The notes under the pieces are model-generated. The model made no database searches. It saw nothing but the letters and a program-made list of their open reading frames with translations, and was not told the DNA's origin. This document shows positions 21,782-63,423 of a stretch of 64,000 bases of DNA, piece after piece (within the stretch, counting starts at the first letter, position 1; the number at the start of each line of letters is the position of its first letter). Position numbers and translations under genes: made by a program. Origin of the DNA: an uncultured bacterium (GTDB lineage: Bacteria; Babelota; Babeliae; Babelales; Babelaceae); assembly GCA_963713855.1 (NCBI GenBank), contig OY970209.1, forward strand, positions 384,001 to 448,000, in the 5' to 3' direction.

Positions 21782-21788
21782 CTCGGTT

Positions 21789-22067: not shown

Positions 22068-22089
22068 GGCTTAAGTTTAGGTAGCTTGT

Positions 22090-34049: not shown

Positions 34050-34052
34050 GGA

Positions 34053-34306
34053 CTGTGCTCAAATAAAAATCAGGGAAAAATACGCCTACGCGGCTAGCGG
34101 CAGGACATTGTCCTGCACCTGTTGCTTCTTTTGCGTCTTACATAATTATTGTGTATGAGATAGACCGGTTCCGGTCTATCTCATTAGGCACATTTACCAG
34201 AAAAGGAAATCCCTTTCTGGTAAATTAAACAACCATAAAAAATTTAAGCAGGGTGTGGGTCAAGGGCGTCTGCCCTTGCGCCCGCCGCGTAGGCGTCTAT
34301 TTTCCT
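34053..34306 (+). repeat. Structured palindromic repeat, copy 2 (core 34084-34294)
   Basis: Same ends and hairpins as copy 1, with compensatory changes and a short internal deletion. Confidence 0.95.
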
Positions 34307-36383: not shown

Positions 36384-36459
36384 TGGAGCGGGAAACGGGA
36401 TTTGAACCCGCGACCTTTGCCTTGGCAAGGCAACGCTCTGCCAACTGAGCTATTCCCGC
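36384..36459 (-). tRNA. tRNA-Gly(GCC)
   Basis: GCGGGAATAGCTCAGTTGGCAGAGCGTTGCCTTGCCAAGGCAAAGGTCGCGGGTTCAAATCCCGTTTCCCGCTCCA; cloverleaf with encoded CCA. Confidence 0.98.
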
Positions 36460-37514: not shown

Positions 37515-37687
37515 AACTTTTCCTTTTGGCTTAGGCTTTCTTTTAATTTAAAATAGACATAATATTGAAGTAAAGTATTTTATTTTGCTATCTTATTAAA
37601 AGAAAGGTTCTTCTTGAATAGAAATGCCTTCGTATTGGGCTTTGATAGCCTTTGAAAGATCTTAGAAAGAAAAAAAAGGAGATAGTA

Positions 37688-38038
37688 ATGAAAAAATTTT
37701 TAAGTTTAGCTTTTATCGGAGCTTTATTAAGCTCAGCGTCATTAGTTCGAGCAGTCGAGTTTGTATTTCATAATGACATGGATAAAGATGTAGTGCTTCA
37801 TCCAAACTATGATTCGACTCTTTGTACTACAAATCCGTTCAGAATTAACAAAAAATCATCCTACACTTTTGATGCCGGTAAGGCTTGTTACATGGTATTA
37901 AAATCTATAGATCTAACGGTGCCTGATAATCCTCACCTAATTGGTACTATAGATGACTTACCGCACGACATTTTTGGTAGTTATTCTATAACCATCAAAG
38001 AAGAAAACAACATGCTTACGGCAACTTTCAAGAAGTAA
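37688..38038 (+). CDS. Small exported protein, tandem paralog 1
   Basis: AAGGAG RBS; signal peptide; LTVPxNP and DLP motifs shared with the next two ORFs. Confidence 0.8.
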   Translation: MKKFLSLAFIGALLSSASLVRAVEFVFHNDMDKDVVLHPNYDSTLCTTNPFRINKKSSYTFDAGKACYMVLKSIDLTVPDNPHLIGTIDDLPHDIFGSYSITIKEENNMLTATFKK

Positions 38039-38192
38039 TGTTTTAAGTAGTTGAGTTAGGTCTATCTAGGCACTTTTTCGTTTTATCCGACCTTGATCTC
38101 TAATTTAAAAGGTGAGTTTGTAGTGTTGGATACTTGAGGGGTGAAGATATGACGGATTTAATTGGATCTAAACATACAAAAAGGAGATGGTA

Positions 38193-38555
38193 ATGAGTAA
38201 ATATGCCTTAGGTTTAGCTTTTATCGGAACTTTATTAGGCTCAGCGTCATTCGTTCAAGCTGACGATTTTACGTTTTACAACAAAACCGATAATGATGTA
38301 ATGGTTCATCCGAACTTCAGTTCGGACTATTGTAGTAATAATGCGCCGTCATTTATGGTGCCCAAAAAATCATCGCACCATTTTGATCCAGGGCAAACAG
38401 GGTGTTACCTATTATTAACATCCATGGACCTAACGGTTCCCGGTAATCCGCATCTTGTTGGCAACGTGCATGATTTACCCCGTGGTATGTTTGGCACCTA
38501 TTTTATATCGATTACTGAAGAGAACAACGCGCTTATTGGTAGTTTTAATAAGTAA
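38193..38555 (+). CDS. Small exported protein, tandem paralog 2
   Basis: AAGGAG RBS; signal peptide ending VQA; same motifs. Confidence 0.8.
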   Translation: MSKYALGLAFIGTLLGSASFVQADDFTFYNKTDNDVMVHPNFSSDYCSNNAPSFMVPKKSSHHFDPGQTGCYLLLTSMDLTVPGNPHLVGNVHDLPRGMFGTYFISITEENNALIGSFNK

Positions 38556-38767
38556 TATTTTAAATGGCTGAGTAGGCAGCTATTCAGCCGCTTCTTACTT
38601 TTTATCGACCTAGATCTGCGGTAAATAATTTGAAAGTTCATAGTGTTTGATATTTGAGAAGTTTGGAGGAAGATGATTTTTATTTAAGCCGCTTCTTTTG
38701 GCTTACCTTTCTGTTTAGTCGAAATAGAAATAATATTGAATTAAAATGTTTAAAGAAGGAGACGGCG

Positions 38768-39142
38768 ATGAATAACTATGCATTAAGTTTAGCTTTTATT
38801 GGAGTTTTATTAAGCTCGGTGTCTTTAGTTCAAGCGCGCGATATTGTGTTTTACAACCAAACCGATAAAGACGTGAAGGTTCGTCCGACCTACGACTCGG
38901 CTCGTTCGATGCACGACTTGTTGTATTGTAGCACGGTGCCATTTATAGTACCAAAAAAATCGTGGAAAGAGTTTCATGCAGGAAGTTGTTCCCAAGATCC
39001 GAAAGCCATATTTCTAACGGTGCCCGGCAATCCTCAGCTTTCTGGCTATGTACATGATTTACCACTAAGCAATTATGGCTCCCCCTATATAACCATTAAC
39101 GAGGAAAACAACGCAATTGCAGGTTACTCTGGTGTAACCTAG
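38768..39142 (+). CDS. Small exported protein, tandem paralog 3
   Basis: AAGGAG RBS; signal peptide ending VQA; same motifs. Confidence 0.8.
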   Translation: MNNYALSLAFIGVLLSSVSLVQARDIVFYNQTDKDVKVRPTYDSARSMHDLLYCSTVPFIVPKKSWKEFHAGSCSQDPKAIFLTVPGNPQLSGYVHDLPLSNYGSPYITINEENNAIAGYSGVT

Positions 39143-39159
39143 CTCCATTTTGATACCTT

Positions 39160-41367
39160 CTATCCAATAAGGGGGTGATTTTTTTGTTCATTTTCAAAAC
39201 ATTGTTGCGTGCTTAAAGCTGTCACATCTATCGCCTGTGTTAAAAGGCGTGGTGCATGTAATTCAAGGCCGAGTTGAATAATAAGATCTATAAATTCCAT
39301 TGGCCTTAGTCCCCATTCTGCAGCTTGATGAAATAAGCACGTTGCGGGTGTAAGTCCTGGAAGCGTGTTGAGTTCCAAAACGATGACACGGTCAGTTTTT
39401 GTGGGGCTCATAGCGGCCGATTGATAAAAGCAATCGATTCGCGCGTATCCGGCGCAACCTGTCACTTTATAGGTATCTTCTATTGTTTTTAATACTAGCG
39501 TTGTTGCAGTTGCCGGTATCGGTGCCGGTGTTTGGTTTTCCCCTGCACCTGGCAAAAACTTTTCTTCTATAGACAAAACACCAGCTTGCGCAACTGTCAT
39601 GCTCGGTGGTAATGCTCGGCAGATACTATTACCCACAACTCCGACACTCAGCTCCAAACCTTCAATGCACTCTTCTATTAGTACCGCATTTTTGCCCGCA
39701 CCAAACACTTCATTAATCGCTTTTTTAAGCGCTGAAGCATTGGTAACTTTTGCGACCATAACGCTGCACCCGTCATCATGCGGTTTTACAATAAGGGGGA
39801 AGGGCGGCAAGCCGTGCTTTTCGGGATCATTATGCCACTCTTTCGCTTCAATAAGTACACCCGCTGGTACAGGTATACCGTGCTCTTTTAAAACTTGTTT
39901 TGTTTTCCATTTATCCATACAAAGAGCGCTTGCAAGAACGCCTGAGCCGTTATAAGGTATGCCGAGCGTTTCCAGTAATCCTTGTATAGAGCCGTTTTCG
40001 CCATGTCCTCCGTGCAACGCTACGAATGCAAAATCGATAAGATTCGGTAAGTCTTGCCAAGAGATTTTCATTGAAGAGGTAAGCTCAGCTTCTATCTCAG
40101 CAGTTGTGTTACGCACCAGCAGTCGTTGGTCGATGCAAAACAATTCTAAGTTTGAGCTTAAGAATAGCGGGATAGCCGCATATTTTTGTGGAGAAAGCTT
40201 ATAAATCACATTCCGCCCGGAGGCAAGAGAAATTTCTTTTTCGTTTGATTGGCCGCCTAAAAGAATACCAACGCGCATTTTTTTTGCGTCTGTAATTTTA
40301 GTGTCGTGTTTTAGGTTTTCTGCATTTTTAAGCATAGTGTACGTATGTAATTCGGTGGCTATAAGGTGGTTGATAAATTGGGTATGGCTCATATTTATCT
40401 CGGCCGCTTGCAGGAATGCAAGACTTGCTGGATCCATGCCAGAAAAAGTATTTGGGTCAATAATAACGACCCGATTATCATGTGTCAAAATACCATCAAT
40501 GCGTCCCAAGTTGTGTATACTCAAGGCTGACATAACGCGAAGGCATGTGTCTTTAATACGCTGCTCGGCTTCTTTTGTGCATCGTGCCGGTGTACGTTTT
40601 AAAGTTTTACCAGGCATGTATTTCTGCTCGTAATCAAAAAAGTCAGATCCCTCATTCAGGACTATCTCAGTTGGAGGAAGCGGTAAAAGAGTTTTTTTAG
40701 CGTAATCGGTAATGACAATGCACGAAAATTCCATGCCGCGTACATATTCTTCTATAAGCACTTTTTGCTGTATTCCCGGTGTGATAGTTCGTGCTTTTAT
40801 GATAGCACTTTGTAGTTCATGTTCGTTTTTTACCACGGTTATACCTAAGCTCGATCCCTCATGGCAAGGCTTTACGATGCAGGGAAATCCAAAAGGTGGC
40901 GTAGAAATGTTTTTATCATAAGGCTCGACGATAACTGCGTTTGGAACATCGATGTTTGCAGATTTTAAAAAAGTCCGCTGCATCACTTTGTCCATGCTTA
41001 GAGCGCTTGAAAATACTTTGGATCCGAAATAGGGGATGCCAAGAATTTCAAGAAAGCCTTGTATCGATCCATCCTCCGCGTACCTTCCATGCTGAGCTAT
41101 ATACATAAAATCAATGATCTGCTTAAGTGCATCCCATGCAACCGGCTCGGCTTCAGCTTCGAGCCGATGTTCAAAGTCACTTGTTTTACCGCGGTGCAAA
41201 AAATGGATTGGCATTTTATAGAGAGTGCCCGTTTTTGTTTGAAAAAGGGGAACAACGCGATAGCACGAGGTATCAAGATGATCGCACACCGTTCTTCCAG
41301 AATTCAATGAGACTTCGCGTTCTTGAGATTTACCACCCATAAGAACGCCAATGCGTAGACTGTGCAT
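39160..41367 (-). CDS. ddl: Tandem double-domain D-alanine--D-alanine ligase
   Basis: Two complete GGxSxE(R/K)E(V/I)SLxSG ... HG..xE(D/N)GSIQG.LE.LGIPY.GS ... MDK ATP-grasp modules. Confidence 0.88.
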   Translation of the reverse strand: MHSLRIGVLMGGKSQEREVSLNSGRTVCDHLDTSCYRVVPLFQTKTGTLYKMPIHFLHRGKTSDFEHRLEAEAEPVAWDALKQIIDFMYIAQHGRYAEDGSIQGFLEILGIPYFGSKVFSSALSMDKVMQRTFLKSANIDVPNAVIVEPYDKNISTPPFGFPCIVKPCHEGSSLGITVVKNEHELQSAIIKARTITPGIQQKVLIEEYVRGMEFSCIVITDYAKKTLLPLPPTEIVLNEGSDFFDYEQKYMPGKTLKRTPARCTKEAEQRIKDTCLRVMSALSIHNLGRIDGILTHDNRVVIIDPNTFSGMDPASLAFLQAAEINMSHTQFINHLIATELHTYTMLKNAENLKHDTKITDAKKMRVGILLGGQSNEKEISLASGRNVIYKLSPQKYAAIPLFLSSNLELFCIDQRLLVRNTTAEIEAELTSSMKISWQDLPNLIDFAFVALHGGHGENGSIQGLLETLGIPYNGSGVLASALCMDKWKTKQVLKEHGIPVPAGVLIEAKEWHNDPEKHGLPPFPLIVKPHDDGCSVMVAKVTNASALKKAINEVFGAGKNAVLIEECIEGLELSVGVVGNSICRALPPSMTVAQAGVLSIEEKFLPGAGENQTPAPIPATATTLVLKTIEDTYKVTGCAGYARIDCFYQSAAMSPTKTDRVIVLELNTLPGLTPATCLFHQAAEWGLRPMEFIDLIIQLGLELHAPRLLTQAIDVTALSTQQCFENEQKNHPLIG

Positions 41368-41503
41368 GCTTATTTTTTCTTCCATGAAAGATATACTCAA
41401 AAAGTGTATCATCAACATATGTAGTGTCACAAGAAAAAACTTGTGAGTATTTGCTTCCACTTGTTACTCTATAAATCGATAAAGAACATAAGGATTTTTT
41501 GTA

Positions 41504-42490: not shown

Positions 42491-43639
42491 TTATTCAAAA
42501 AGTAGAGTTTGAGCGGTAATTTCAAAGTAAGCATTTGCGTTTGACGGCACTGTAGCGTTTTCAGTAACTTGAGGTATAAGTGGCATTTGTTGTTCTTGCT
42601 GCCCTGGCCAAGTGCTCATTATCTCATTTTGCAGTTTTTCAAGTCTTAAAAGCAATTCTTTTACGTCAATGCCGTGTTTTTTAGCATAAGCTTTTACGAT
42701 TTGCTTTTTAATCTTTTTCCACCCATATTTTACAAGATCTCTAAAGCGCTCATGATCTCTATGCAAGATGTCAGTAATGCTGTGACGATTAGGAAGCTCG
42801 TGATCGTGATAATAAACTCTACCCTGATTATCGACGCTTACGGCGTTGCCCATAGTCCAATATCCGGTGTAAGCGGTAAGACGTACCAGAGAAGTAAGAA
42901 TTTCTTCATCCAATGCTAGGGGCGACTCTGAAAGAGGCGTTAATGGTCCGAGATAAAGCTCTACTACAACGTAGTTTGTATCTTCAACTTCGAGCGGTCG
43001 ACCCGGTATATGTACTAAATGGGTTTCTGGTATATGAATGTTTGTTATACCGAAAGTGCGTAATGCTTCTCGGGCGCGTAGATAGATCATAGCCCGGCTT
43101 ATGTTCTGGTACACTCTGCCATACAAAGGCTCTGCGTTAAATCGCTGCCATTCTTCTTGGGTTAAGATGCGCCCATAAGGGGTGTTGCTTTTTGTCCAGT
43201 GACCCGCATCCATAGATGCTAAGGTGTCAACGACATTTTGACGAGAAATAGCTACTTTCGATCGTTTTATAACCCATGCATTATCAACGTTGATGATATA
43301 AGAATGTCGATTTTCAATAAGAGGTACGTTGTTATCGACGAGTTCTTTGTCGATACCGGCAGCAAGCGCTTTTCGTTCTTCTGCTGAACCCGTAAAGAAG
43401 ATCTCTAGATGATCTGCTCCAGAAAGTATATGACCGATACCGTATCTTTCGATGAAGCCTTCTATCTGGCCTCTTACGTCGGGATCAAGCAAAGCCTCTT
43501 TTTCAAGTAGTTCAAGAAGATTTGAAGATGTGATTTCCTCACCGTTATACGTGCCGTACGATTCTTCCTTGGGTTGATGCATCCCATAAGCTGTTGAACA
43601 TGCTATTAAAATGAAGGTTGCTATATATCTATAGTTCAT
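42491..43639 (-). CDS. Exported orphan protein, possible kinase-like fold (paralog B)
   Basis: Signal peptide MNYRYIATFILIACSTAYG; strong similarity to 43629..44816. Confidence 0.7.
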   Translation of the reverse strand: MNYRYIATFILIACSTAYGMHQPKEESYGTYNGEEITSSNLLELLEKEALLDPDVRGQIEGFIERYGIGHILSGADHLEIFFTGSAEERKALAAGIDKELVDNNVPLIENRHSYIINVDNAWVIKRSKVAISRQNVVDTLASMDAGHWTKSNTPYGRILTQEEWQRFNAEPLYGRVYQNISRAMIYLRAREALRTFGITNIHIPETHLVHIPGRPLEVEDTNYVVVELYLGPLTPLSESPLALDEEILTSLVRLTAYTGYWTMGNAVSVDNQGRVYYHDHELPNRHSITDILHRDHERFRDLVKYGWKKIKKQIVKAYAKKHGIDVKELLLRLEKLQNEIMSTWPGQQEQQMPLIPQVTENATVPSNANAYFEITAQTLLFE

Positions 43640-44816
43640 TACGTTCCTTAATGAGTTTTTGACTCTCAAGCTCGACGCCAGAAAGATCAGGTGTATGAGC
43701 AACATTTTCTTGTGTCGTAACATTTGTTGTATGCTCTTCTTGACTGGAAGCTTGACGCACCAGGCTATCCATTATCTCTTCCTCTAGAAGATGCAAATTA
43801 TCAAGAAGCTTCGTTCCATCCACCGTGTAACTTAAACCACAACTATTAATTGCTTTAACATAGATGTTAATAACTTGTTCTTCGAGTTGGAGCCACCCAT
43901 ATTTAACAAGGTTTCTAAAACGAACGTGATCTCTATGCAAGATATCGGTAATGCTGTGACGATTAGGAAGCTCGTGGTCATGATAATATACGCGTCCCAA
44001 GTTATCGACGCTTACAGCATCTCCCATTGTCCACCAGCCTGTGTAAGCGGTAAGGCGTACGAGTGAAGTGTGGACTTCTTCATCTATCGCAATCGCTGGA
44101 AAAAGAGCTAACGGCGTTAATTCTCCAACGTGGCGTTCAACAACAACGTAATTTCTATCCTCGACCTCATAAGGTCTTCCTGGAATATGTACCAGATGAG
44201 TTTCAGGTATGTGAATGTTCGAGATTCCTAGCTTTAGTAGTCCTTCGCGTGCTCTCAAATAAACCATCGCCCGACTAACATTTTGATAGATCCTGCCGTT
44301 AAAAGGTTCGGCGTTAAAACGTGACCATTCCTCTCGACTTAAGAGACGCAAATATTCGCCTGGGTCTTGGGTAAAGCTTGGCTGACCAATTGTTGCAAAT
44401 GTATCACAAACGTTTTGGCGACCAAGATGTACTTTTGAACGTTTTATTAACCATTTATTATCAACGTTAATGATAAAGGAATTGGGAGCCGCGATAAGTG
44501 GAATCTTTTTGTCTTTTAATTCGCTCTCTATATCATCTGCAAGTTTTGTGCGTTCTTCTTCAGTACCCGTGAAAAATAGTTCTTGGTGGTCTGCTCCGGA
44601 TAAGATATGTGCTATGCCAGATGTTTCAATAAATTCTTCTAAGCTCTTTCTTACTTGAGGATCAAGCGGTGCTTCTTTTTCAAGAAGTTCTAAAAGATTA
44701 AAGGGCGTAATTTCTTCATCTTGATAGGTACCATAAGAAACTTTTTTAGGTTGCTGCATACCCTGCGCTACTGTGAATGTTGCTAAAACAATTGCAGCTG
44801 CGTATCTGTAGTTCAT
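43629..44816 (-). CDS. Exported orphan protein, possible kinase-like fold (paralog A)
   Basis: Signal peptide MNYRYAAAIVLATFTVAQG; shared IHIPETHLVHIPGRP and GRVYYHDHELPNRHSITDILHRDH. Confidence 0.7.
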   Translation of the reverse strand: MNYRYAAAIVLATFTVAQGMQQPKKVSYGTYQDEEITPFNLLELLEKEAPLDPQVRKSLEEFIETSGIAHILSGADHQELFFTGTEEERTKLADDIESELKDKKIPLIAAPNSFIINVDNKWLIKRSKVHLGRQNVCDTFATIGQPSFTQDPGEYLRLLSREEWSRFNAEPFNGRIYQNVSRAMVYLRAREGLLKLGISNIHIPETHLVHIPGRPYEVEDRNYVVVERHVGELTPLALFPAIAIDEEVHTSLVRLTAYTGWWTMGDAVSVDNLGRVYYHDHELPNRHSITDILHRDHVRFRNLVKYGWLQLEEQVINIYVKAINSCGLSYTVDGTKLLDNLHLLEEEIMDSLVRQASSQEEHTTNVTTQENVAHTPDLSGVELESQKLIKERNEL

Positions 44817-46844: not shown

Positions 46845-46956
46845 AACGTACTTTCTAAAACTGATACTTAAAAAGGTACAGAGTACCTCCAATAAAAGCA
46901 AATACTTGACTATCAAGCACTTTTTTCTTTAGGTACTAGTCCTTAGATAGTGAGTG

Positions 46957-47294
46957 AAAGAGAAATAGGCGCCTACGCGGCGAGCGGCAGGACCCTCCAC
47001 TAATCGCCCTCTGCGAGGGCTGTTGCGGACCAATCATGCCTTACTTGGCATGGTATGGTTCCTGCACCTGTTGCTTGTTTTGCATGTTACATACTTATTG
47101 TGTATGAGATAGACCGGAAAATCCGGTCTATCTCATTAGCACATATACCAGAAAGGGAACCCCTTTCTGGTATATTAAATAACCATAAAAAGTTTAAGAA
47201 GGGTGTGGGTCAATGGGTCATAAAGCCTGGGTCAAGGGCACGCCCTTGCGCTCGCCGCGTAGGCGTATTCTTCTCCCATTTTTATGTAGCACAG
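46957..47294 (+). repeat. Structured palindromic repeat, copy 3 (core 46971-47264)
   Basis: Same core as copy 1 plus an insertion of about 60 bp; outer flanks swapped and reverse-complemented. Confidence 0.95.
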
Positions 47295-47300
47295 AAAAAA

Positions 47301-51849: not shown

Positions 51850-52992
51850 ATGTATAAAAAGTTGTTAAGTGTGTTGCTATTTATTATAGTCATTTTACAG
51901 GTCGACGTGAGTTTTGGTCAATCCTCCTATAAGGAACGCTTGGTTGCTTTAGTAGAAGATAACCGAATACCTGTATGGATGTCCGAGCAGATTAAGAGCG
52001 ATCTAGAGCCTTTTAAAGCGAACCGTATACCGCTTGAGTCGATTTGCGAGACCTCCCCGAAGTGGCAGACCTCGGGTGTTGTTCGCTATACTATCAAAGA
52101 GGGAAAATTAACAATACATCCTTCTCCGCTTTGTTCAACTCTCAGTGTACTTGAATCGAGATGCAAGCAGTATAATGCTATTGTTAAAGCGTTAACCGAT
52201 ACAATACGCGTACCTGATGTTGAATTCACCGTATATCTGGGGGATGGGTTTATAGGCGGAAATTCACACACCCTGCCAGGGCCTATATTTGGTTTTTCGA
52301 AAGACAAAAATTTAGACACGAATGCTCTATTAGTTCCAGACTTTCATGCATTAGAGATCTATCCGCCGCTTATTGAGGATGTTGAAATAGGAAATAGGGC
52401 ATATCCTTGGCATGTCAAAGTCAATAAGGCCTTTTGGAGAGGAGCTAGCACCTGTAATTATCTCGACATAACTCTGAGTAATTATACCGCTTGCCCCAGG
52501 CTCAAATTAGTAGAAATAGCACGTATCAATTCTGATTTGATTGACGCTGGTTTAACCATGTGTGTACAAATGGATGAAGAGACCAGAAAGCTATTCTCAA
52601 ACTATCTCGTATCTTCAGTATCCGTGAGTGAGCACCTTAAATATAAGTACCTCATTTTAACAGATGGTAACGGAGCCGCTTATCCACGGGGGTTTTGGCA
52701 TTTATTTGGTAATTCTGTTGTTTTTAAGCAAAAGTCGGACAGTGTACAATGGTTCTATCGAGGCTTGAAACCATTTGTGCATTTTATTCCTTTTAATGAA
52801 GATTTTAGCGATTTAATTGAAAAGATACAATGGGCAACGAACCATGATGCAGAAACCCGTTTTATCGCAGCTCAAGGCCGCGCCTTTGCTCTAAACAATC
52901 TATGCTTAGAAAATAACTTGTTTTATTTGTATATCTTACTCAAGGAATTTTCTGCACTACAACAAGCCAGTAATTATAAGCAAGAGCTATAG
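51850..52992 (+). CDS. Glycosyltransferase family 90 (CAP10/KDELC-like), signal peptide
   Basis: FWRGAST, HLKYKYLILTDGN, QWFYRGLKPFVHFIP; paralog of 32943..34049. Confidence 0.85.
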   Translation: MYKKLLSVLLFIIVILQVDVSFGQSSYKERLVALVEDNRIPVWMSEQIKSDLEPFKANRIPLESICETSPKWQTSGVVRYTIKEGKLTIHPSPLCSTLSVLESRCKQYNAIVKALTDTIRVPDVEFTVYLGDGFIGGNSHTLPGPIFGFSKDKNLDTNALLVPDFHALEIYPPLIEDVEIGNRAYPWHVKVNKAFWRGASTCNYLDITLSNYTACPRLKLVEIARINSDLIDAGLTMCVQMDEETRKLFSNYLVSSVSVSEHLKYKYLILTDGNGAAYPRGFWHLFGNSVVFKQKSDSVQWFYRGLKPFVHFIPFNEDFSDLIEKIQWATNHDAETRFIAAQGRAFALNNLCLENNLFYLYILLKEFSALQQASNYKQEL

Positions 52993-53002
52993 ACTCGAAG
53001 TT

Positions 53003-53725
53003 TTATCGTTTTATTATTATGCAGAGGCTAGGGTAAAAATGGATAGATTCTATGTGTTCTTGGTGGTAATTTAAACTACGATTCACTTCTTCTGGCCATT
53101 TTGTTTTATCAGCCGATCCACATCGGGCGCAGCCATAATTAAGATCATCAATGAGGTTCTGAAAAAATCGTATAGCGGACGCGGCCCCTGCTTTTGGATT
53201 GCTAGTACTTCCCTCAGAACCGAAATCCTTCCAGTAGGACGTATGCAAGTCCTCTACGACATACACACCTCCACTTTTTAAAAAAGGGAATAGGGTTTGA
53301 AAACTTAAAATTTGTGCCCCCATAAAATGACAACCGTCGTCAATAATAATGTCAAATTCGCCACCTGATTGAGCGGCGACTTCGAGTAACTCTGCTTTAT
53401 CGTGCTGATTAGCTTTATGGAGTTTGCATTTAGATGTAAGACCCTGCAAATGTTCCCAGCATTTATCATTGATATCCATAAAGTGTAACTCTTGCGCATG
53501 GGGAAAATAATCTTGCCACATACGGGCTGAGGCACCTTGCCAAAATCCTATCTCTAATAATTTTATTGGTTTATCTTTAAAACGGCTAAAATAGCTATCA
53601 TATATGAGTGTGTAACGATGAAAAAGAGGACCTTTATCCGAACCATAGCGATCAGCTAAATCATCGAGTTCACACGCTTGCATTGATGTTATAAAAAAGA
53701 GAGAGAATAGTGATATAATTTTCAT
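53003..53725 (-). CDS. SAM-dependent (sugar O-)methyltransferase, signal-like N-terminus
   Basis: YGSDK, LLEIG, FDIIIDDGCH, GGVYVVEDLHTSYW. Confidence 0.85.
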   Translation of the reverse strand: MKIISLFSLFFITSMQACELDDLADRYGSDKGPLFHRYTLIYDSYFSRFKDKPIKLLEIGFWQGASARMWQDYFPHAQELHFMDINDKCWEHLQGLTSKCKLHKANQHDKAELLEVAAQSGGEFDIIIDDGCHFMGAQILSFQTLFPFLKSGGVYVVEDLHTSYWKDFGSEGSTSNPKAGAASAIRFFQNLIDDLNYGCARCGSADKTKWPEEVNRSLNYHQEHIESIHFYPSLCIIIKR

Positions 53726-53737
53726 TGCATTTTCATT

Positions 53738-54451
53738 TCAATCTTGCGTTGAACAGGTATCACCGGTACATAGTATAGGTTTTTCGATCCACCAAAAACG
53801 GGGCTGCAGTGGATGAACATTAACCTTTAAGTTATTTTCAGCGCAAAATTGATTTATTGCTTGTGGAACTCCTGGCCACACTGTAGCATAATCATCGCCT
53901 GCAATAATTCCTCCACCACGGATTTTAGGATACCATGCTCTTAAATCAGCAATCACATATCCATAATTATGATTGGCGTCAATGAAAACGAAGTCAAGTT
54001 CTCGCTCTTTAAAGTGATCGACAGCGTTTAGCGAGGTATCCCTTAATAATTCAAATCGCGAGCCAAACAGCGAAAATTGAAGCTTTACTCTCCAGTAAAG
54101 AATATCAAAGTACTTTTGAGGTAATGGTGTGGTAGCCGGATCTTGGTAGTCGATAAAAGGGTCTATGCCATATAACTTGTCCACTTTGGTATGCTCGAGC
54201 AAATATTTACAATGAGCCCCGGTTAAAATACCTACTTCACAGCCAATGCTCAGGCCTAACCGATTGATAAGATCTGCAAAAAGACTGTGGTAGGGCTCTT
54301 CATGATCAATCTGTTCAATAACTTTTAGTGCTTGTATGATTTCTGATTCTGAAAATCCTGTAATTTGTGCATAATCGGTTACAGCAAGCTTACCTGGTAA
54401 AAGGTGGCAAAAACTTAATCCCAAGACAAATAATATTTTTCTGGCTAACAT
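53738..54451 (-). CDS. SAM-dependent methyltransferase (Methyltransf_24-like), signal-like N-terminus
   Basis: GCEVG, LYGIDPF, DFVFIDANH, GGIIAGDDY; start 54451 after AGGAGAG. Confidence 0.85.
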   Translation of the reverse strand: MLARKILFVLGLSFCHLLPGKLAVTDYAQITGFSESEIIQALKVIEQIDHEEPYHSLFADLINRLGLSIGCEVGILTGAHCKYLLEHTKVDKLYGIDPFIDYQDPATTPLPQKYFDILYWRVKLQFSLFGSRFELLRDTSLNAVDHFKERELDFVFIDANHNYGYVIADLRAWYPKIRGGGIIAGDDYATVWPGVPQAINQFCAENNLKVNVHPLQPRFWWIEKPILCTGDTCSTQD

Positions 54452-54488
54452 GTCTCTCCTTTTTTTGAGCATCTTCATAGGTAACTCA

Positions 54489-55772
54489 TTAAGCTCGATT
54501 TTTAAAGGCTGAAGATAACTTATTGAAAAACTTTTTTGATTTCGTGATAAGACCCTTATCCGTAATAGCATTCTTATTACCAAGTGTAAAGCGGCTAGGT
54601 TTTATAAGATTAATAAATTTTTGCTTTATTGCACCATCACTGTAGCGTAAAACCCATCTTCTTCTCTGTGGAGCTTGCGATAAGTAATGCCCATAGTTAT
54701 CATATACGCGTCGCAAAGCTTTCTTGGCATCACGTATATGGGCATTGAAATTGTTACCAGAATAAGTATTAAAAAATGGATGGTACATCTTTTCAATCAA
54801 GGGAGCAGGAACGCACGCAGCAAGACCCGATGAGCAGATAGTTGAATGAGCGGTATGATCACTTAAAACAACCGGTATGCCAAGAGCAAAAGCTTCACGT
54901 GGTAAGATGGAAAATCCTTCGCCTTTGGAAAAACTAGCAACAACATCGATAGATTTTAAAAGGTCTATGTATTCAGCCTCACTCAGGCTTTTAAAAATGC
55001 ACTTTACATTAGTAAGCTTTAAACGATTGATTAATTCTTGGATTTTTTTTACCGTTTCGCGCTCCTGGGGATGCCCTGTGACACGACCGTGCATTATGAG
55101 TCTTACACCGGGGTTATTGCTAAACTCTTCAGCAAATGCTTTAAGAAGAAGCAGATGATTTTTTCGTTCATAAAAACCTGCAGATAAGCCGAAGGTAAAA
55201 GGAGTATGCGCTCTTTTTTTTAAAGGCTGCTCAAGCAGTTTTTGAAGATAAAGACCGCAGGGTAAAACAAATATCGGGATTTCTACGCCCGCTTTTTCAA
55301 AGACTGAAACGAGGAATTTATCAGGTACTACTAATGCATCGAATTTATTATTAATAATGCTTACCCATGAAGGGGGCGGTGCGTCTGTTTCTATCATTAA
55401 GTAAGCAATCTTAATTTTAGAAGAGGATAGAGCATCTTCCGGCTTTTCAGCAAGTCCAAGTAAATCGATGAAAAAAGCAACTCTGCCGGGCCTTTCAGGT
55501 CTGCTTACTATTTCCTGAACTGCGGGAGAGACGTTTTGGAGATCGATTGCTTGAGGATTAGTCGCTTTAAAATTTATTTTCAAGTCCTTGTATAAATGAT
55601 CCATTACCCAAATAGGTATTCGATATAGTCCGTCACAATACTTCAGTTTTCCGACTATCGTTACGTCATAATCAAACGGTTTACGTTTAGGTAAAGTTTT
55701 TCTGGGTTTAGAAGTCGAACCCAGGCTTACCTTACCGAGTATCAGAATGAAAACGAAGAGCTTAAAATTCAT
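54489..55772 (-). CDS. GT-B glycosyltransferase (GT4-like), signal-like N-terminus
   Basis: RKN motif and EGFSILPREAFALGIPV (E-x7-E). Confidence 0.85.
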   Translation of the reverse strand: MNFKLFVFILILGKVSLGSTSKPRKTLPKRKPFDYDVTIVGKLKYCDGLYRIPIWVMDHLYKDLKINFKATNPQAIDLQNVSPAVQEIVSRPERPGRVAFFIDLLGLAEKPEDALSSSKIKIAYLMIETDAPPPSWVSIINNKFDALVVPDKFLVSVFEKAGVEIPIFVLPCGLYLQKLLEQPLKKRAHTPFTFGLSAGFYERKNHLLLLKAFAEEFSNNPGVRLIMHGRVTGHPQERETVKKIQELINRLKLTNVKCIFKSLSEAEYIDLLKSIDVVASFSKGEGFSILPREAFALGIPVVLSDHTAHSTICSSGLAACVPAPLIEKMYHPFFNTYSGNNFNAHIRDAKKALRRVYDNYGHYLSQAPQRRRWVLRYSDGAIKQKFINLIKPSRFTLGNKNAITDKGLITKSKKFFNKLSSAFKNRA

Positions 55773-55787
55773 GTTTTTAAGGTGCCT

Positions 55788-57362
55788 TCATGTTTTTCTT
55801 AGTATTGGGTTCTTAAAAAATAAGCCTACTTTTTTAGGGCTATAGATTGTGCTAGCCCATGCTTGAGTAAATTGACCTATGGATGCAAAATTGAGTTTAT
55901 TAAGAGTCTCTAAGACATAATTAGTTTTATAGAGTATTGAACCTAGTTTATTTGGTTGTGGCCAGATGTGCTTGCCATGGTGCAACTGCCATGCCATTGT
56001 GTCGTTGCCTAAGAAGGCAGCATTTTTATCAAGAACAGTACTTGCTGGTTGACTCAGGTGTAGGTAAAAGCCTAGAGCAAATGTTTTCTCTAGTTGCTTA
56101 ATGCATTCGTTAAGATTGAGCGCATGTGTATTAATGTAGCTATCTGTCGACAATACCACATGTTTTCTAGCAGCTTTGAGTATTTTTCGTAACGAGTTTT
56201 TTAGTGCATCTCTATTAGCGGAGTGGTTACGTGTAAAATTAACTTTTGAAAAATCCTTACGCATTCCCGCATACCGTTTAGCAACAGAATTTTTAGAACA
56301 CTCATAGAGAACGTGTATTTTTCCTACGCCACGTACATTCTTTTGCACTGCTTTTAGACATTTACTAAGTGCTTGGGGATTATTATGAGATAGTAAAATA
56401 ACATCAGCTCTTGCGTGATCAAATTGCTTGCTTATTCCAACGGGTAATTGTGCTAATGGCTGGTATTTTTCCCATGTTCTTACAAGTTGATTTATGTTCC
56501 ATTGCGCTCCTCGGTTTTCATCTTTTCCGTTGCCTTGGTTTTGTTGGCTTAATGGGTTTTGCCAGTTCCAACGATAGAGAATCTTATCTATAAACTTGCT
56601 GTGATGACTGACCATCTCCAAAATAGGGTACATAAAACAAGAATCTGCTGATGGCGATAATGGCTTAAAACTGCCCTCATAAAGTAGATCTTCGAGTTTA
56701 ATCTTTTTAAATATACATGCGTAAAATGAACGAGGATGAAACCAATCCCAAACATAGGGCACAGCTGGATCCCAATGATCTTGTCTATAGCTATGCGCTT
56801 TTATGACAGCATCGGGTATTGCTACAAAAGGCTTTTCCCAAGGCCCTGGAGGAACATGGGGTTCAAATGACATTAAGCCATAGGTCATCCATATGCCAGG
56901 TGTTTTGTAAGCATCGTTAATCGTCGCAAATACAGTATCTTCAGAAAAGTAATCATCACCATCGATATTCAATAAAATTTCATCATCATTGCATAGATGT
57001 GCTGCGCGATAATGATTGGCCAGCTGGCTTTGCCATTCTTCGTTTCTTACAAGAGTGCATTTATGCTCTAATTTATGTTCTTTAAAATACTCTTCAACTA
57101 AATTGGGAGTATTATCCGTAGAAGCATCATCTACGTAAATGAGGCGATAGTTGTGATATTTTTGAGAAAAGATAGAATCAAGGTTTCGTCGGTACCATCG
57201 GGCATTGTTATATGAAGTGACAACGACAGCAATAGGATGCTCTTGAGGATTTTGCTTAGCAGCTAATTTGTTATCTAAACTAAAAAAACATGCAGATAAA
57301 AAGAGAAAAATACTATTGATTTGAAGCTTTGTCTTACTCGTCATTAGTTCCCTATCGTGCAT
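55788..57362 (-). CDS. GT2 glycosyltransferase with C-terminal extra domain, signal-like N-terminus
   Basis: VVTSYNN, YVDDASTD, IDGDD. Confidence 0.85.
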   Translation of the reverse strand: MHDRELMTSKTKLQINSIFLFLSACFFSLDNKLAAKQNPQEHPIAVVVTSYNNARWYRRNLDSIFSQKYHNYRLIYVDDASTDNTPNLVEEYFKEHKLEHKCTLVRNEEWQSQLANHYRAAHLCNDDEILLNIDGDDYFSEDTVFATINDAYKTPGIWMTYGLMSFEPHVPPGPWEKPFVAIPDAVIKAHSYRQDHWDPAVPYVWDWFHPRSFYACIFKKIKLEDLLYEGSFKPLSPSADSCFMYPILEMVSHHSKFIDKILYRWNWQNPLSQQNQGNGKDENRGAQWNINQLVRTWEKYQPLAQLPVGISKQFDHARADVILLSHNNPQALSKCLKAVQKNVRGVGKIHVLYECSKNSVAKRYAGMRKDFSKVNFTRNHSANRDALKNSLRKILKAARKHVVLSTDSYINTHALNLNECIKQLEKTFALGFYLHLSQPASTVLDKNAAFLGNDTMAWQLHHGKHIWPQPNKLGSILYKTNYVLETLNKLNFASIGQFTQAWASTIYSPKKVGLFFKNPILRKT

Positions 57363-57641
57363 ATACGCCTTAAGACTTTTAAAACTTGGATGACTATAAT
57401 TTACCTGGATAATTATAATATACCTGGAATCTACAGCGCAAGATTGTTCTTAAGTCGGTACTTCTATTCCCTCCAATGAAGAGGGGGATGGTAAGATATC
57501 TAATTGAGGTAATGGTCGAATGAAAATTGAGGATTACGGTGTAAAGTTCTTGATAGGTACAAAATCGTAGTATGTTGAAACTTTTAATCATTCATGCTAA
57601 GAATCTAATGACAATGCTTTTGCGTAGGTGGAAGGAAGATA

Positions 57642-59336
57642 ATGGCATTTATAAAACGAGCTTTTCTTTTATTTGTTATTGGTATACAAAGTTTTTTTTT
57701 AGAAGCCATCAGTATCGAACCTTCCATTAATACGTTAATACCAGAAAAACCATTGGTTGTGGTTATTACTTCCTATAATAATGCTCAATGGTTCGCTAAG
57801 AACTTGGAATCAGTTTTAACGCAAAATTATAAAAATTATAGAGTTATCTATATCGACGATGGTTCGCCGGATGGAACTGCTCAACTTGTAGATGGTTATA
57901 TCAAGGAACATAAGGAGGAACACCGTTTTCTTCTCATTAAAAATAGCCAAAATATTGGACAAATGGCCAATCACTATAAAGCAGTTTGCTACTGTGCTGA
58001 TGATGAGATCGTTGTTCACTTGGATGGTGATGATTTTCTTATCGATAAAAATGTCTTAAAAGTTGTCAACACTATATACAGCACTCATGATGCCTGGCTT
58101 ACTTATGGTCAAGCAAGTCTGTGGCCCTTACTAGAAGAAGTATGGCCTGCTACTGAGGTAGACGTCAAAATAGAGGAAGCTATCGCAAGCAATAAATTTA
58201 GAAAAGAATGGATGTATGGACACTTAAGGACTTTTAAGGCAGCTCTTTTTAAACAGATAAAACTACAAGACTTAATCCATAAGAACAGCTTTAAAACTAT
58301 GTCTCCAGCTCCAGATGTAGCATTTATGTATCCTATGCTTGAGATGGCTGGCACACATGGATATTACGTTAAAACCCCTTTGTACTTATGGAATCGTAGT
58401 AATCCTAACAGTCAGCATAATCTTAATTTGGCTGCCGTTTTTGATCTTTTGTATACCATTCAAGCATGGGAGCCCTATCAGCGCCTTGTCACGCTAAAAC
58501 CTTCTTTTAATAGTAGTAAAAACCAGCTTAAAGCGGATGTTTTCCTCTTTGCTCATGAAATTACCAGTGGCAATCCTGCTTTAGCGAGTTTAAAATTAAA
58601 GGCAAATGACCTTGGCAAAATAACACTGTTTTATGATAAAGCTAAACCTCAGCAAATCGTTGATATGAAGAAAAAGCATCCCAAGGTAGCTTTGATACCT
58701 TTTGCTGACAAGTCATTAAAAACTTTCCAGACATGCCTTCTGAATACCCCGAGTGATCACCTTATTCTTATGAAGGATAACGTGTCTCTAAAAAACAGTA
58801 CGGATATGAAAAAAGCGATTTGTTCACTTGAGACGACCTTTGCGCAAGGGTTTTACTTTGACATAGATGGCGCTTATTTAGAGGCAAGGAGTTTTTCTTA
58901 TGTCGAGCCATTTGATCATTTAATTGGTTGGCAGCCAGAAACGAACCCATTAAATGCGAACGATTTAAATATGATCATGTATCGAAAGCGAGATATTCAA
59001 CAGCAAGTAGCATTAATGCATGGGCAACAAAAGCCATTCTCATATTTTGTTCTACCATTTCAACCTAGACAGCTGCTTGTTGGATGGAAAAATAGTCCTA
59101 TAAAGGTCGTTAAAACCGAAGTTAACAATAACAGGAAGGCAGTTAAGAGTAAAACTCCTAATAAAAAAATAGAAAAGCCCAAAAATAAGAAGAAAATGGT
59201 TGAGAGTAAACTACCCGGCAAGAAAATAGAAAAGAACAAAAGCGATAATAAGGACGCGGTAAAGAATAAAGCCGCTAAGAAGAAGGCAGCAAAGAACAAA
59301 AGCGATAACAAAAAATTGAAAAGGGGTAATAGATGA
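57642..59336 (+). CDS. GT2 glycosyltransferase paralog with Lys-rich tail, signal-like N-terminus
   Basis: VITSYNN, YIDDGSPD, LDGDD; shares YPxLEM and LExTFAxGFY with the divergent neighbour. Confidence 0.85.
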   Translation: MAFIKRAFLLFVIGIQSFFLEAISIEPSINTLIPEKPLVVVITSYNNAQWFAKNLESVLTQNYKNYRVIYIDDGSPDGTAQLVDGYIKEHKEEHRFLLIKNSQNIGQMANHYKAVCYCADDEIVVHLDGDDFLIDKNVLKVVNTIYSTHDAWLTYGQASLWPLLEEVWPATEVDVKIEEAIASNKFRKEWMYGHLRTFKAALFKQIKLQDLIHKNSFKTMSPAPDVAFMYPMLEMAGTHGYYVKTPLYLWNRSNPNSQHNLNLAAVFDLLYTIQAWEPYQRLVTLKPSFNSSKNQLKADVFLFAHEITSGNPALASLKLKANDLGKITLFYDKAKPQQIVDMKKKHPKVALIPFADKSLKTFQTCLLNTPSDHLILMKDNVSLKNSTDMKKAICSLETTFAQGFYFDIDGAYLEARSFSYVEPFDHLIGWQPETNPLNANDLNMIMYRKRDIQQQVALMHGQQKPFSYFVLPFQPRQLLVGWKNSPIKVVKTEVNNNRKAVKSKTPNKKIEKPKNKKKMVESKLPGKKIEKNKSDNKDAVKNKAAKKKAAKNKSDNKKLKRGNR

Positions 59337-60184
59337 TAAAAAGGTTGTTTTTGTTGATGCTTATGATGTTTTTATCTGCTACTATAGAGCAGTCCCTGAT
59401 TGCCAAAAATAACAAGTCAACGTCCCAGGCCAAGATACTGTATCTTGATCTAATCAAGAAGTCTTTGATTAACCATATTTACCAAGATGCCGGCTTAGAT
59501 TATGCTCACGGTGAAGTAAAACCCTATGATTCAGCAGTCAGAGAACAAGGAAAAGATTGGCCAGTTCGTGCTCATACCATGATTGGCTTGAAGCGCTTGG
59601 ACAATCTGCAGGCCTGTATTGAAAGTGTTTTGAAAAATAATGTTCCGGGGGACCTTATAGAAACGGGGGTATGGCGTGGAGGGGCGACTATTTTAATGCG
59701 AGCTGTTCTTAAAGCTTATGGTGTTACTAATCGTAACGTATGGGTTGCTGATTCTTTTCAAGGCTTGCCAAAACCCGATACTGAAAAATATCCTGAGGAC
59801 TCTTTTCTTGCTCAAAACAATATCCAAGATATTAAAGAACTTGCTGTTGGCTTAGAAGAGGTAAAATCTAACTTTAGAAAATATGACCTTTTGGATGGTC
59901 GCGTAAAGTTTTTAAAAGGATGGTTTAAAGACACTTTACCATCGGCACCTATAAAGAAATTGGCTGTACTTCGCCTCGATGGAGATCTCTATGAATCTAC
60001 CATACTGGCTCTTAGGCACTTGTATCCCAAGCTGTCTATTGGAGGATACGTTATTATAGATGATTACAATGGCCTAGATGATGCATGTAAAAAAGCAGTA
60101 AACTATTATCGTAAAAAGCATCACATTACTGAACCAATTATCAAGATTGACAGTGAAGGGATCTTCTGGCAAAAGAAAAAATAG
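59333..60184 (+). CDS. TylF/MycF/NovP-family sugar O-methyltransferase, signal-like N-terminus
   Basis: TMIGLKRL, GDLIETGVWRGG, DSFQGLP, GWFKDTL, LRLDGDLYES, IDDY. Confidence 0.92.
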   Translation: MIKRLFLLMLMMFLSATIEQSLIAKNNKSTSQAKILYLDLIKKSLINHIYQDAGLDYAHGEVKPYDSAVREQGKDWPVRAHTMIGLKRLDNLQACIESVLKNNVPGDLIETGVWRGGATILMRAVLKAYGVTNRNVWVADSFQGLPKPDTEKYPEDSFLAQNNIQDIKELAVGLEEVKSNFRKYDLLDGRVKFLKGWFKDTLPSAPIKKLAVLRLDGDLYESTILALRHLYPKLSIGGYVIIDDYNGLDDACKKAVNYYRKKHHITEPIIKIDSEGIFWQKKK

Positions 60185-60241
60185 TTGATTGACACAAAAC
60201 GTATATATACTTGTTGTGATTCTCAATAAAAAGAGGCAGTA

Positions 60242-61231
60242 ATGAAATCAATAAGGTCTTATTTTACGAGGATTATTGGAGCACTCCTTATAAGTTTTAC
60301 CTTACAAGTAAGGTGTGCTCAAGCGCCCACGTTCCTCGTGTTTGGGGGAAAAAGTGGTTGGATTGGGCAAAAGATAGTCAAATTACTTGAAGAACAGGGC
60401 CATAAGGTAGCTGTTGCACAGTCACGTCTTGAAAATCGACAAGATGTCGAAAAAGAGATTGAAACGGTACAACCAAAGTACGTTATTAACGCAGCGGGCC
60501 TCACTGGTAGGCCAAATATAGACTGGTGTGAAGACAACCAACCAGCAACTATTAGAGCAAATATTATAGGAGCATTAACTCTTGTTGATGTTTGTTTTTT
60601 GCGAGGTATCCATGTTACGAACTTTGGTACTGGTTGCATTTACGAATACGATAAGGATCACGCCCTTAACAGTGGCATCGGTTTTAAAGAAGAAGACACT
60701 CCTAATTTTACGGGTTCTTTTTATTCAAAAACGAAAGTTATGCTTGATGAACTCTTCAAATCGTATAATAACGTTTTAAATTTAAGATTACGTATGCCTA
60801 TTTCTGATGATTTACATGGGCGTAGTTTTATAACTAAAATTGTACATTACGATAAGGTAATTGACGTTCCTAATTCGATGAGCGTGCTTTCTGATCTTTT
60901 ACCCATTGCAATAAAGATGACGGTAAAAGAATTAAAAGGTAACTACAATTTTGTAAATCCGGGAGCTATATCGCATTCGGAGATATTAGATCTCTACAAA
61001 ATTTTTATAGATCCAAGTTTTACTTATAAAATCTTTACTGTTGCTGAACAGGACACCATCCTTAAAGCCCGTCGCTCTAATAACGAGCTTGATGTAAGTA
61101 AGCTTCTTAAAGAATTTCCCGAGATACCACCCATTAAAGATTCTATAAAGGAGATGTTTAAAAGAATGAAAAACAGCAAAACGACATTAGATGAGCTTCT
61201 TAAAAACGATTATCACATAATTGGCACCTAA
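60242..61231 (+). CDS. NDP-4-keto-6-deoxyglucose 3,5-epimerase/4-reductase (plant NRS/ER-type), signal-like N-terminus
   Basis: GWIG, NAAGLTGRPNIDWCE, TGCIYEYD, GIGFKEEDTPNFTGSFYSKTK, RMPIS, RSNNELD. Confidence 0.9.
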   Translation: MKSIRSYFTRIIGALLISFTLQVRCAQAPTFLVFGGKSGWIGQKIVKLLEEQGHKVAVAQSRLENRQDVEKEIETVQPKYVINAAGLTGRPNIDWCEDNQPATIRANIIGALTLVDVCFLRGIHVTNFGTGCIYEYDKDHALNSGIGFKEEDTPNFTGSFYSKTKVMLDELFKSYNNVLNLRLRMPISDDLHGRSFITKIVHYDKVIDVPNSMSVLSDLLPIAIKMTVKELKGNYNFVNPGAISHSEILDLYKIFIDPSFTYKIFTVAEQDTILKARRSNNELDVSKLLKEFPEIPPIKDSIKEMFKRMKNSKTTLDELLKNDYHIIGT

Positions 61232-61254
61232 AAGTATTGCAGTGAAGGTAACTA

Positions 61255-62427
61255 ATGAAGCGCTTTAATTTCTTTTTTATAATGAGCACCGTACAACTAT
61301 TTTCATGGGCAGCGATCAACAATGCTTATGAATGTTCTCTTAATGGGCAAGTTGGACTTGCTGACTTAGAAATGGTATCTACTGGAAATGCTACCAATCA
61401 TAAAACAGTTCTCATAACTGGTGGCGCAGGGTTTATTGGAAGCAATTTCCTGCGCTATATGTTTGACAAATATCCAAGCTACCATTTTATAGTCCTAGAC
61501 TTGCTCACGTATGCTGGATCTCTCGACAACATACCGGACTATATTAAGTTTTCTAAGCGCTTTGAATTTAGCTATGGCTCAGTGACCAATATTCCCCTTG
61601 TTGATTCTCTCATGCAAAAAGCCGATTATGTGGTACATTTTGCCGCTGAAACACATGTTACTCGTAGTATAGCCGACGACGCTGTGTTCTTTGAATCTGA
61701 TGTACTTGGGTCGCGCGTTCTTATGTCGAATCTTGTTAAACATGCTCATAAGGTAGAACGGTATATCCATATATCGACCTCAGAGGTATATGGCACTGCT
61801 CTAGTAGAACCTATGACCGAAGAACATCCTTTAAATCCTCGTTCTTCTTATGCTGCTGCAAAGGCTGGTGGCGATAGGCTTGTGCATGCTTATTGGTGTA
61901 CCTATGATATTCCGGCAGTTATTGTAAGACCCTTTAACAATTATGGGCCTCAGCAGCATCCTGAAAAAATGATGGCGCGCTTTATTACCAGCGCTATTAG
62001 AGAGCAGCCATTAACCATTCATGGGACGGGGCTGCAAGCACGTGATTGGCTACACACCAATGATACCTGCGCTGCTTTAGATGCTGTCTTACACGCCAAA
62101 GATTTTTCTAAAATAAAAAATCAAGTGATCAATCTTGGTACCGGTAAAGCGGCATCTGTTTTGGCTATTGCCAAAATGATTCTTAGCTTTTTTAATAAGT
62201 CTGAGGAGTTAATTAGCCACATATTAGATCGTCCAGGTCAGGTAGTAAATCACATTTCGTCAATCGAAAAAGCAAAGAAACTATTGGACTGGCAAGCAAA
62301 TGTGCAACTGGAAGAAGGCTTAAAAGAAGTGTGTGAGTGGTATGTTAATAATGTCGATCATTGGAAAAAAGCTGAGTTTATGAAGCGCATACCTTTACGC
62401 TTTAATAGCACTTTAGTTATCCAATAA
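61255..62427 (+). CDS. rfbB: NDP-glucose 4,6-dehydratase (RmlB/RfbB-like), N-terminal extension
   Basis: TGGAGFIGSN, DLLTYAG, HFAAETHV, YAAAK, NNYGP.QHPEK. Confidence 0.85.
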   Translation: MKRFNFFFIMSTVQLFSWAAINNAYECSLNGQVGLADLEMVSTGNATNHKTVLITGGAGFIGSNFLRYMFDKYPSYHFIVLDLLTYAGSLDNIPDYIKFSKRFEFSYGSVTNIPLVDSLMQKADYVVHFAAETHVTRSIADDAVFFESDVLGSRVLMSNLVKHAHKVERYIHISTSEVYGTALVEPMTEEHPLNPRSSYAAAKAGGDRLVHAYWCTYDIPAVIVRPFNNYGPQQHPEKMMARFITSAIREQPLTIHGTGLQARDWLHTNDTCAALDAVLHAKDFSKIKNQVINLGTGKAASVLAIAKMILSFFNKSEELISHILDRPGQVVNHISSIEKAKKLLDWQANVQLEEGLKEVCEWYVNNVDHWKKAEFMKRIPLRFNSTLVIQ

Positions 62428-63047: not shown

Positions 63048-63423
63048 TGGTGGAGGCGATGGGAATCGAACCCATGTCCGCAATACCTAGACCTTAAAGC
63101 ACTCCATGCTCAGTCCCTGGTTATACAGCGCATCTACCCCAAAGACAAGATCTGATGCACAGTCTTATTTTGTATAATATCAAGCTACAAAGCAAGAAAA
63201 CCTCACTTGATAGTCACATCTTATTACTACGAGTTGGCTCAATTGATGGACACATCAAGACAACAAGCGCTTAGTGCCCTTAGGCAAAAGCTGGGACAGC
63301 CATGCTGCTGCCCCCTACGGTATGTTCGCCGTTTATTGTTTAGATTCTTTTTTTACGAGCACTGAATCAAAGCTCGGCATGCACTCCAAGATTTCAATAC
63401 CACGTCGAAGCCAGTACGCCCCC
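63048..63423 (-). ncRNA. ssrA: tmRNA
   Basis: 5' GGGGGCGTACTGGCTTCGAC; 3' GGGTTCGATTCCCATCGCCTCCACCA; internal tag frame 63330-63280 GEHTVGGSSMAVPAFA-stop. Confidence 0.95.

Follow-up and report, generated by a model that had tools for sequence, protein, structure and literature searches.

Replication-aligned cores nested in randomly oriented IS5-type transposon ends in a Babelaceae genome

Several described kinds of short repeated DNA resemble the element reported here. MITEs of the IS5 family are likewise short, non-coding and dispersed, carry left and right insertion sequence (IS) ends with TA outside many of them, and occur without a transposase found in the genome. Neisseria mosaics of the NIME type resemble the element as pairs of inverted hairpins with a variable spacer, and inversion of a bacterial MITE-like element between its own terminal repeats has reportedly been seen for the Correia element. 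REP doublets (REPINs or BIMEs), in the cited passages of two papers (PMC3733652, PMC6006769), share with it two short inverted hairpin units, a variable spacer, modular mosaics and a location mostly between convergent genes. Template switching homogenises repeat arms and inverts spacers in the passages cited from PMC8604942 and PMC5941160, and is strand-asymmetric in E. coli in those cited from PMC6357072; the common ground here comprises inverted arms over 9 bp, inverted spacers, arm homogenisation and this strand asymmetry. Finally, the peel-and-paste elements of the IS200/IS605 group share hairpin ends and fork orientation, as presented in parts of two reports (PMC3971601, PMC6006769).

The present element combines parts of these systems. 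Three copies lie in the window, by which we mean the whole stretch of 64,000 nucleotides analysed (positions 384,001 to 448,000 of contig OY970209.1, assembly GCA_963713855.1), from a 1.52-Mb single-contig assembly (91% complete; here called G000). A core of 210-310 bp is enclosed by a frame with two different ends, A and B. Each core end has the same unit in inverted orientation, namely a head of 12-17 bp, a hairpin with a 7-bp stem and then ACC, and roughly 190-280 bp of spacer separate the two units. Compared with IS5-family MITEs, the interior is a foreign repeat pair and not an IS remnant, it lies in both orientations, and it is the interior rather than the ends that is aligned with the replication fork. 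In inversion of the Correia type the whole element reportedly turns, whereas here an inner cassette would turn within fixed transposon ends. Unlike REP doublets, the element has no GTAG/CGTC tag before the hairpin and no RAYT gene was found for it, and its structured spacer of 190-280 bp is nested in IS ends and polarised by replichore. In the element GTAG is confined to the head loop, on the 3' side of the hairpin, and it is not constant in a second genome of the same genus (G001); no match to PF01797 (RAYT/TnpA-REP) was found in G000, and the four Y1 loci checked in G001 have no flanking heads. Judged from its sequence, the core would work like a REP doublet, yet it departs from REPs in two defining features, tag position and the RAYT gene. 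Template-switch spacers described in the cited passages of PMC8604942 measure 2-5 bp, whereas those here are about 50-fold longer and the outcome is directional genome-wide. In contrast to IS200/IS605, it is a cassette inside a DDE-type MITE that shows the bias, with ends that are near-symmetric, and TnpA was not found in this genome. The component parts are therefore of known kinds; for their nesting, with a replichore-oriented cargo inside randomly oriented transposon ends, we found no precedent in literature titles and abstract openings, mostly outside subscription journals.

Copy 3 reads, in order, B (46932-46969), head (46970-46986), core, head (47249-47265) and A (47266-47299). Its B end, on the minus strand, is a decayed IS5-family right end with the last transposase-like codons, identified by end typing and by its match to an IS of G001, and the TA just outside it (46930-46931) is likely a target-site duplication. 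The left head, on the plus strand, forms a mini-hairpin with a 4-bp stem; it is 17 bp long and a perfect inverted repeat of the right head, which has the same length and lies on the minus strand. Adjoining it is the left hairpin, GCAGGAC..TCCTGC followed by ACC (46987-47068, plus strand), with an insertion of about 65 bp in its loop that is also present in three other copies (two B-core-A, or BA, and one A-core-B, or AB). Two internal palindromes, at 47104-47136 (14-bp stem) and 47143-47175 (stem about 15 bp), have loops that are inverted in some copies; they are followed by a G-run tract with the right hairpin, CAAGGGC..GCCCTTG (47201-47248, plus strand), which is homologous to the left hairpin in inverted orientation. 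The A end, on the minus strand, is a decayed IS5-family left end with eroded outer bases and abuts the pth stop codon. Copy 1 (21785-22089, plus strand) reads A-core-B, with A at about 21785-21818, the core at 21819-22054 and B from 22055, and has the convergent aspS and a ferritin-like gene on either side. Copy 2 (34050-34295, plus strand) retains A (34050-34082) and the core (34083-34295), has lost B and is followed directly by the mnmE stop codon. The whole element folds far better than shuffled versions on both strands (z = -12.4), no Rfam family matched at the copies, and a simple scan of copy 3 for a sigma-70-like promoter found none.

A sequence-only reading of the window had first pointed out that the core of copy 3 is inverted relative to its own flanks. 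All strings quoted there are present at the positions given: flank A at 34053 is exact and its gapless counterpart at 21789 matches at 20 of 31 positions, the reverse complement of 46957-46970, left of the copy 3 core, equals 22054-22067 in copy 1 flank B exactly, and the reverse complement of 47265-47294 agrees with copy 2 flank A at 25 of 31 columns. The plus direction that it gave for all three cores is also correct. It had described both copies 1 and 2 as A-core-B, which is true of copy 1 and fails for copy 2: the sequence taken for flank B there (GTCTATTTTCCT) is where mnmE ends (minus strand, ...FCVGK-stop, with the same peptide in G001), and it scores below the null of our end typing. 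The repeat itself was recognised at somewhat reduced size, since the flanks measure about 34 bp (A) and about 37 bp (B) and the perfect inverted heads of copy 3 reach 17 bp.

Beyond the element, the window contains tmRNA (63048-63423, minus strand) and tRNA (36387-36459, minus strand) genes found with Rfam. A 1107-aa ORF at 2016-5339 (minus strand) holds at least 12 copies of a repeat of about 47 aa, and genes with repeats of this type cluster near the terminus in both G000 and G001. Three short paralogous ORFs lie in tandem at 37536-39142, with repeated upstream regions 500-580 bp apart, and two adjacent paralogues of about 400 aa at 42491-44816 (minus strand) have no Pfam match at E 1e-5. 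At 39160-41460 (minus strand) a 766-aa protein consists of two fused D-Ala-D-Ala ligase units; G001 seems to hold a similar fusion gene adjoining one of its elements. Glycosyltransferases, methyltransferases and sugar epimerases cluster at 51850-62427 and likely serve a surface polysaccharide.

BLAST revealed 21 copies of this non-coding element in the genome, which by inspection and alignment comprise 13 with the order B-core-A and eight with A-core-B. Leave-one-copy-out typing of the 41 available flanks, with the 99th percentile of 300 random genomic 42-mers as the null, called both ends in 16 of the 21 copies (10 B..A, six A..B, and none A..A or B..B); in the remaining five, one end is uncalled or missing. 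Eleven copies lie between convergent genes, five between divergent genes and five in tandem pairs. Related elements were absent within 600 bp of 33 of 34 orthologous gene ends in G001, suggesting dispersed, lineage-specific insertions, a comparison in which G001 is too distant to serve as an orthologous-site control: the two genomes share 574 reciprocal best hits at 57% identity, and the strand status of genes is randomised between them (309/574). At the remaining site, G000:C1:480984-481007 and G001:C2:668681, an element stands right behind the same orthologous gene, and one in 34 gene ends corresponds to the chance level. The element was found in two or three of 261 genomes of the phylum. 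Metagenome scans with the core palindrome and with the B flank returned no related loci, nor did a viral scan, and BLAST against plasmids and phages gave no match.

The frame has an intact relative in G001, an insertion sequence (L059/L217). The A consensus agrees with its left end at 24 of 34 positions and the B consensus with its right end at 25 of 37, including 14 of 21 beyond the terminal repeat, and eight other IS5-like loci gave only background best matches of 18-21. Beyond the terminal repeat, the B match takes in the final codons of the transposase (ILLWLKN-stop in the IS and ISLWLTI-stop in the B consensus), and the L059 ORF is recognised as IS5 family by NF033580 (155.9 bits, cut-off 110). 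TA immediately adjoins 11 of the 19 A ends that were scored and eight of 21 B ends, on both sides in five copies, and L059 also has TA on both sides. On these sequence matches, A can be identified as the left end and B as the right end, both decayed, of an IS5-family insertion sequence. The search of G000 for an IS5-type transposase matching the frame was negative, and nhmmer with the A and B profiles detected no empty frames in this genome (best non-copy hits E 0.85 or weaker). Taken together with the L059 matches, this marks the frame as an orphan IS5-type MITE, closest among known MITEs to the TA-duplicating type (IS427 group). The proposal that the flanks follow the neighbouring gene does not hold for such transposon ends, and of the 21 copies, 13 have a gene ending on the A side and 14 have one ending on the B side.

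Replichores were defined from the cumulative GC skew, which has its minimum at 395,551 (window position about 11551) and its maximum at 1,196,910. Inverted DnaA-box arrays at 11587-11775, between udg and nusA and outside the element, mark a putative oriC at the skew minimum, and a DnaA-box cluster is likewise located at the skew minimum of G001. The core points with the fork in 19 of 21 copies (binomial p = 2.2e-4), or 18 of 20 once the terminus copy is left out, and the frame does so in eight of 21 (p = 0.38); configuration predicts frame direction (7:1 versus 1:12, Fisher p = 5e-4). The orientation table that the sequence-only reading had proposed supports it on two points across the genome: the core lies inverted with respect to the frame around it, and its orientation tracks the replichore. 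The replichore of the copy at 1197378 is uncertain because it lies 0.5 kb from the skew maximum, where a dif-like motif and a comparison with the terminus of G001 were uninformative. The two copies against the fork, at 4687 and 160328, both belong to the nine with the short repeat type (12 bp or less) and none is found among the other 12, a difference that is not significant (p about 0.17). In tandem-gene settings the core follows transcription in two of five cases, and 53% of genes overall are leading; local transcription does not explain the fork alignment. Since the transposon ends record random insertion orientation, the alignment of 19 of 21 cores with the fork most likely arose afterwards. 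For this assembly we place high confidence in both the anatomy and the orientation rule; the evidence on orientation is a comparison among its paralogous copies, and no single locus was seen with its core in both directions.

Free cores of G001 point with the fork in 28 of 43 cases (p = 0.066), or 27 of 43 by local skew (p = 0.13), and the irregular skew of that genome may erode a fork bias. In G000, the plus strand has the more stable fold in 17 of 21 cores, but the mean difference is only 2.1 kcal/mol. A G-quadruplex is unsupported as the cause of the polarity, with a four-run G pattern in three of 21 cores, and so is KOPS or another special polar word, the skewed 7- and 8-mers of the core being generic G/T-rich words. 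Overall, folding asymmetry, G-runs and core words of the 21 cores offered no source for the directional bias.

Units related to the head and hairpin also occur on their own. They are present without an IS5 frame at more than 40 sites in G001 and once in one further genome among the 261 of the phylum; the count of 43 left ends in G001 skips 18 profile rows (E above 0.01 or without a hairpin tail) and leaves out the last 12.8 kb of contig C1. Pairing of the head mini-hairpin is kept in 107 of 124 heads, and in 39 of 45 with a changed stem, in related sequences that are not independent. The flanks of the G001 elements are a mosaic. In such mosaics (e.g., C2:86446, C2:119180 and C1:216705) tandem GAATT/GAATC pentamers lie outside one head, and AAT or AATAT precedes most heads; these words and the pentamers are possibly footprints or a target preference. 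Among distant bacteria, one scan found the unit at 29 loci, 27 of them in Clostridiaceae QXXE01, where it forms intergenic mosaic clusters as well as tandem arrays, the longest with four or more units (L167-L195).

Core and frame have diverged to very different degrees. Identity to the consensus is 0.92 for the core versus 0.76 and 0.82 for the frame ends, and the median end branch is 0.049 versus 0.22, so that frames are 4-5 times more diverged than cores. Copies differ pairwise by about 13%, and the non-stem linkers of the core are conserved too (0.89 and 0.85). The AB copy 1197378 and the BA copy 1503938, of the same replichore, share 156 identical bases, compared to a median of 31, and their frames are among the most decayed. 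The palindrome loops occur as reverse complements across copies, both in palindrome 1 (AAAAT versus ATTTT, TAAAC versus GTTTA) and in palindrome 2 (AAC versus GTT, AACT versus AGTT). In copy 561489 the hairpin of the right end is found at the left end too. Among copies, the shuffling of end modules is non-reciprocal, and core variants and modules cross the AB and BA configurations. Inverted loops, a copied end hairpin and non-reciprocal modules are the products described for template switching in the passages cited from PMC8604942 and PMC5941160.

Tentatively, and short of calling it probable, we favour the explanation that replication template switching, with a preference for one orientation, turned the cores round in place between their inverted heads of 12-17 bp. 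The interior of an IS would have been replaced once by a repeat of the head and hairpin family, which lives frame-free in G001, and the composite would then have inserted, randomly oriented, at 21 or more sites and afterwards have fallen quiet. Core orientation is uncoupled from the frame and coupled to the fork, a pattern that may have come about as the nascent strand switched at one head to the sister template, copied the core backwards and returned at the other head. Nested hairpin folding would bring the heads together for this, and template switching would also account for the inverted hairpin loops and for arm-to-arm copying. In this model, cores facing against the fork would flip at about ten times the rate of the others, which would act as a ratchet. 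Ordinary RecA gene conversion between copies (recA is present in this genome) would keep the cores alike while the frames decay, and a dedicated invertase would not be needed. The length of the spacers, roughly 190-280 bp, counts against such flipping, given that the spacer inversions in the cited passages of PMC8604942 span 2-5 bp and favour short spacers. Also against it stand the missing source of the directional bias, the weaker fork bias of the free cores in G001, a frame tree that is compatible with one AB clade, and the two copies pointing against the fork.

An unlikely, though not negligible, alternative is that one or a few early core flips produced two isomers, AB and BA, both of which were spread by the IS5 transposase, and that against-fork copies were later purged. 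Their orientation might be harmful, or the core might serve a polar function when it lies with the fork, and such a function would account for its conservation as well. A single AB clade is compatible with the frame tree (AU p = 0.108) and rejected by the core tree (AU p = 0.008), but both trees are poorly resolved and the assumptions of the core tree are broken by gene conversion and paired stems; by permutation, AB and BA lineages are absent (p = 0.53 for A, 0.16 for B and 0.37 for the core). One right-end module is skewed to BA (8/13 versus 1/8 AB copies, Fisher p = 0.067), and the far better conservation of cores than of frames, non-stem linkers included, would also fit such sorting. However, core variants and modules are shared across AB and BA, the profile search turned up neither empty frames nor deletion footprints, the core is without a KOPS-like or special polar word, and the fork bias of the related G001 cores is only weak. 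Moreover, the cited passages of a survey (PMC3971601) report that IS5b-d have little if any orientation bias, and argue that ISs are not subject to selection after insertion. We are more doubtful still about strand-specific exchange, in which a candidate enzyme would read single-stranded head hairpins and cut and paste cores in the lagging-strand template, refreshing old frames in fork orientation. This would be analogous to IS200/IS605 elements, which acquire fork orientation via lagging-strand targeting according to the cited parts of PMC3971601 and PMC6006769. It would suit the kept pairing of the head mini-hairpins, cores that appear younger than their frames, and the frame-free unit of G001 (43 left ends) and of distant bacteria, which indicates that something spreads it. 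Yet neither a Y1 transposase nor an IS110 recombinase nor a reverse transcriptase was found in the 91% complete G000, the sole GIY-YIG match of which sits in a 434-aa frame, and the Y1 genes of G001 are IS200-like and have no flanking heads. Furthermore, with near-symmetric core ends, end recognition alone would not choose a strand, and the bias is weaker in G001, where free cores abound.

The sequence-only reading had offered a tyrosine recombinase of the window (25266-26219, minus strand, outside the element) as a speculative candidate for the inverting enzyme, and a site-specific invertible element would fit the conserved 12-17 bp inverted ends and the occurrence of both orientations; this or another invertase would act at the heads to flip the core, and FtsK polarity would perhaps give the direction. 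The gene is single, the only PF00589 match in G000 and hence its only tyrosine recombinase, with XerA, XerC and XerD as the best models, below their cut-offs. Its product is 74% identical in G001, where it lies beside the same genes, and one close homologue is found in 31 of 40 family genomes, almost none of which have the element. A conserved, single Xer-like gene does not match an element present in two or three of 261 phylum genomes, and the recombinase is most likely a housekeeping dimer resolvase. Xer enzyme sites consist of two arms plus a spacer, unlike the heads, which are hairpins with covarying stems; in addition, module shuffling is non-reciprocal and the simple scan of copy 3 found no sigma-70 promoter. 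G000 also has a large serine recombinase, broken into three ORFs (152, 146 and 121 aa; L165, G000:C1:1495442). A linked dedicated invertase was not found in G000, where the Xer-like gene and the fragmented serine recombinase are the only candidates and no IS110 was found, and we consider inversion by such an enzyme very improbable. We give even less credence to an artefact of assembly or polishing, whereby collapsed or re-threaded repeats would have created false flips and the 156-bp identity, although there is a single assembly and 156 bp is near a common short-read length. An artefact would not know the replichore (19/21), the heads are just 12-17 bp long and give way to end-specific sequence, and the copies are about 13% different pairwise. 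The skew curve is also smooth across copies, and at eight of 21 copies the genes on either side have counterparts in G001 that are no more than two gene ranks apart.

There is, finally, a bolder and likewise unlikely reading, that the core is a second-level mobile cassette, rewritten in dead transposon frames and always fork-oriented by a putative enzyme that reads single-stranded mini-hairpin heads, or else a domesticated polar chromosome landmark. Whatever its cause, the element amounts to a built-in control experiment for orientation. If flips are the cause, strong polarisation by replication is possible, with no invertase, for inversions of 200-300 bp between repeats of 12-17 bp, which would bear on how invertible regions are called from sequence and on the origin of strand-biased repeats. 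If exchange or selection is responsible, the element points to a hairpin-reading enzyme or to a polar chromosome signal. Should cassette rewriting or the reading of a landmark prove true, these bacteria would possess a replication-polarised, repeat-guided DNA rewriting system tied to the head and hairpin repeat of distant bacteria.
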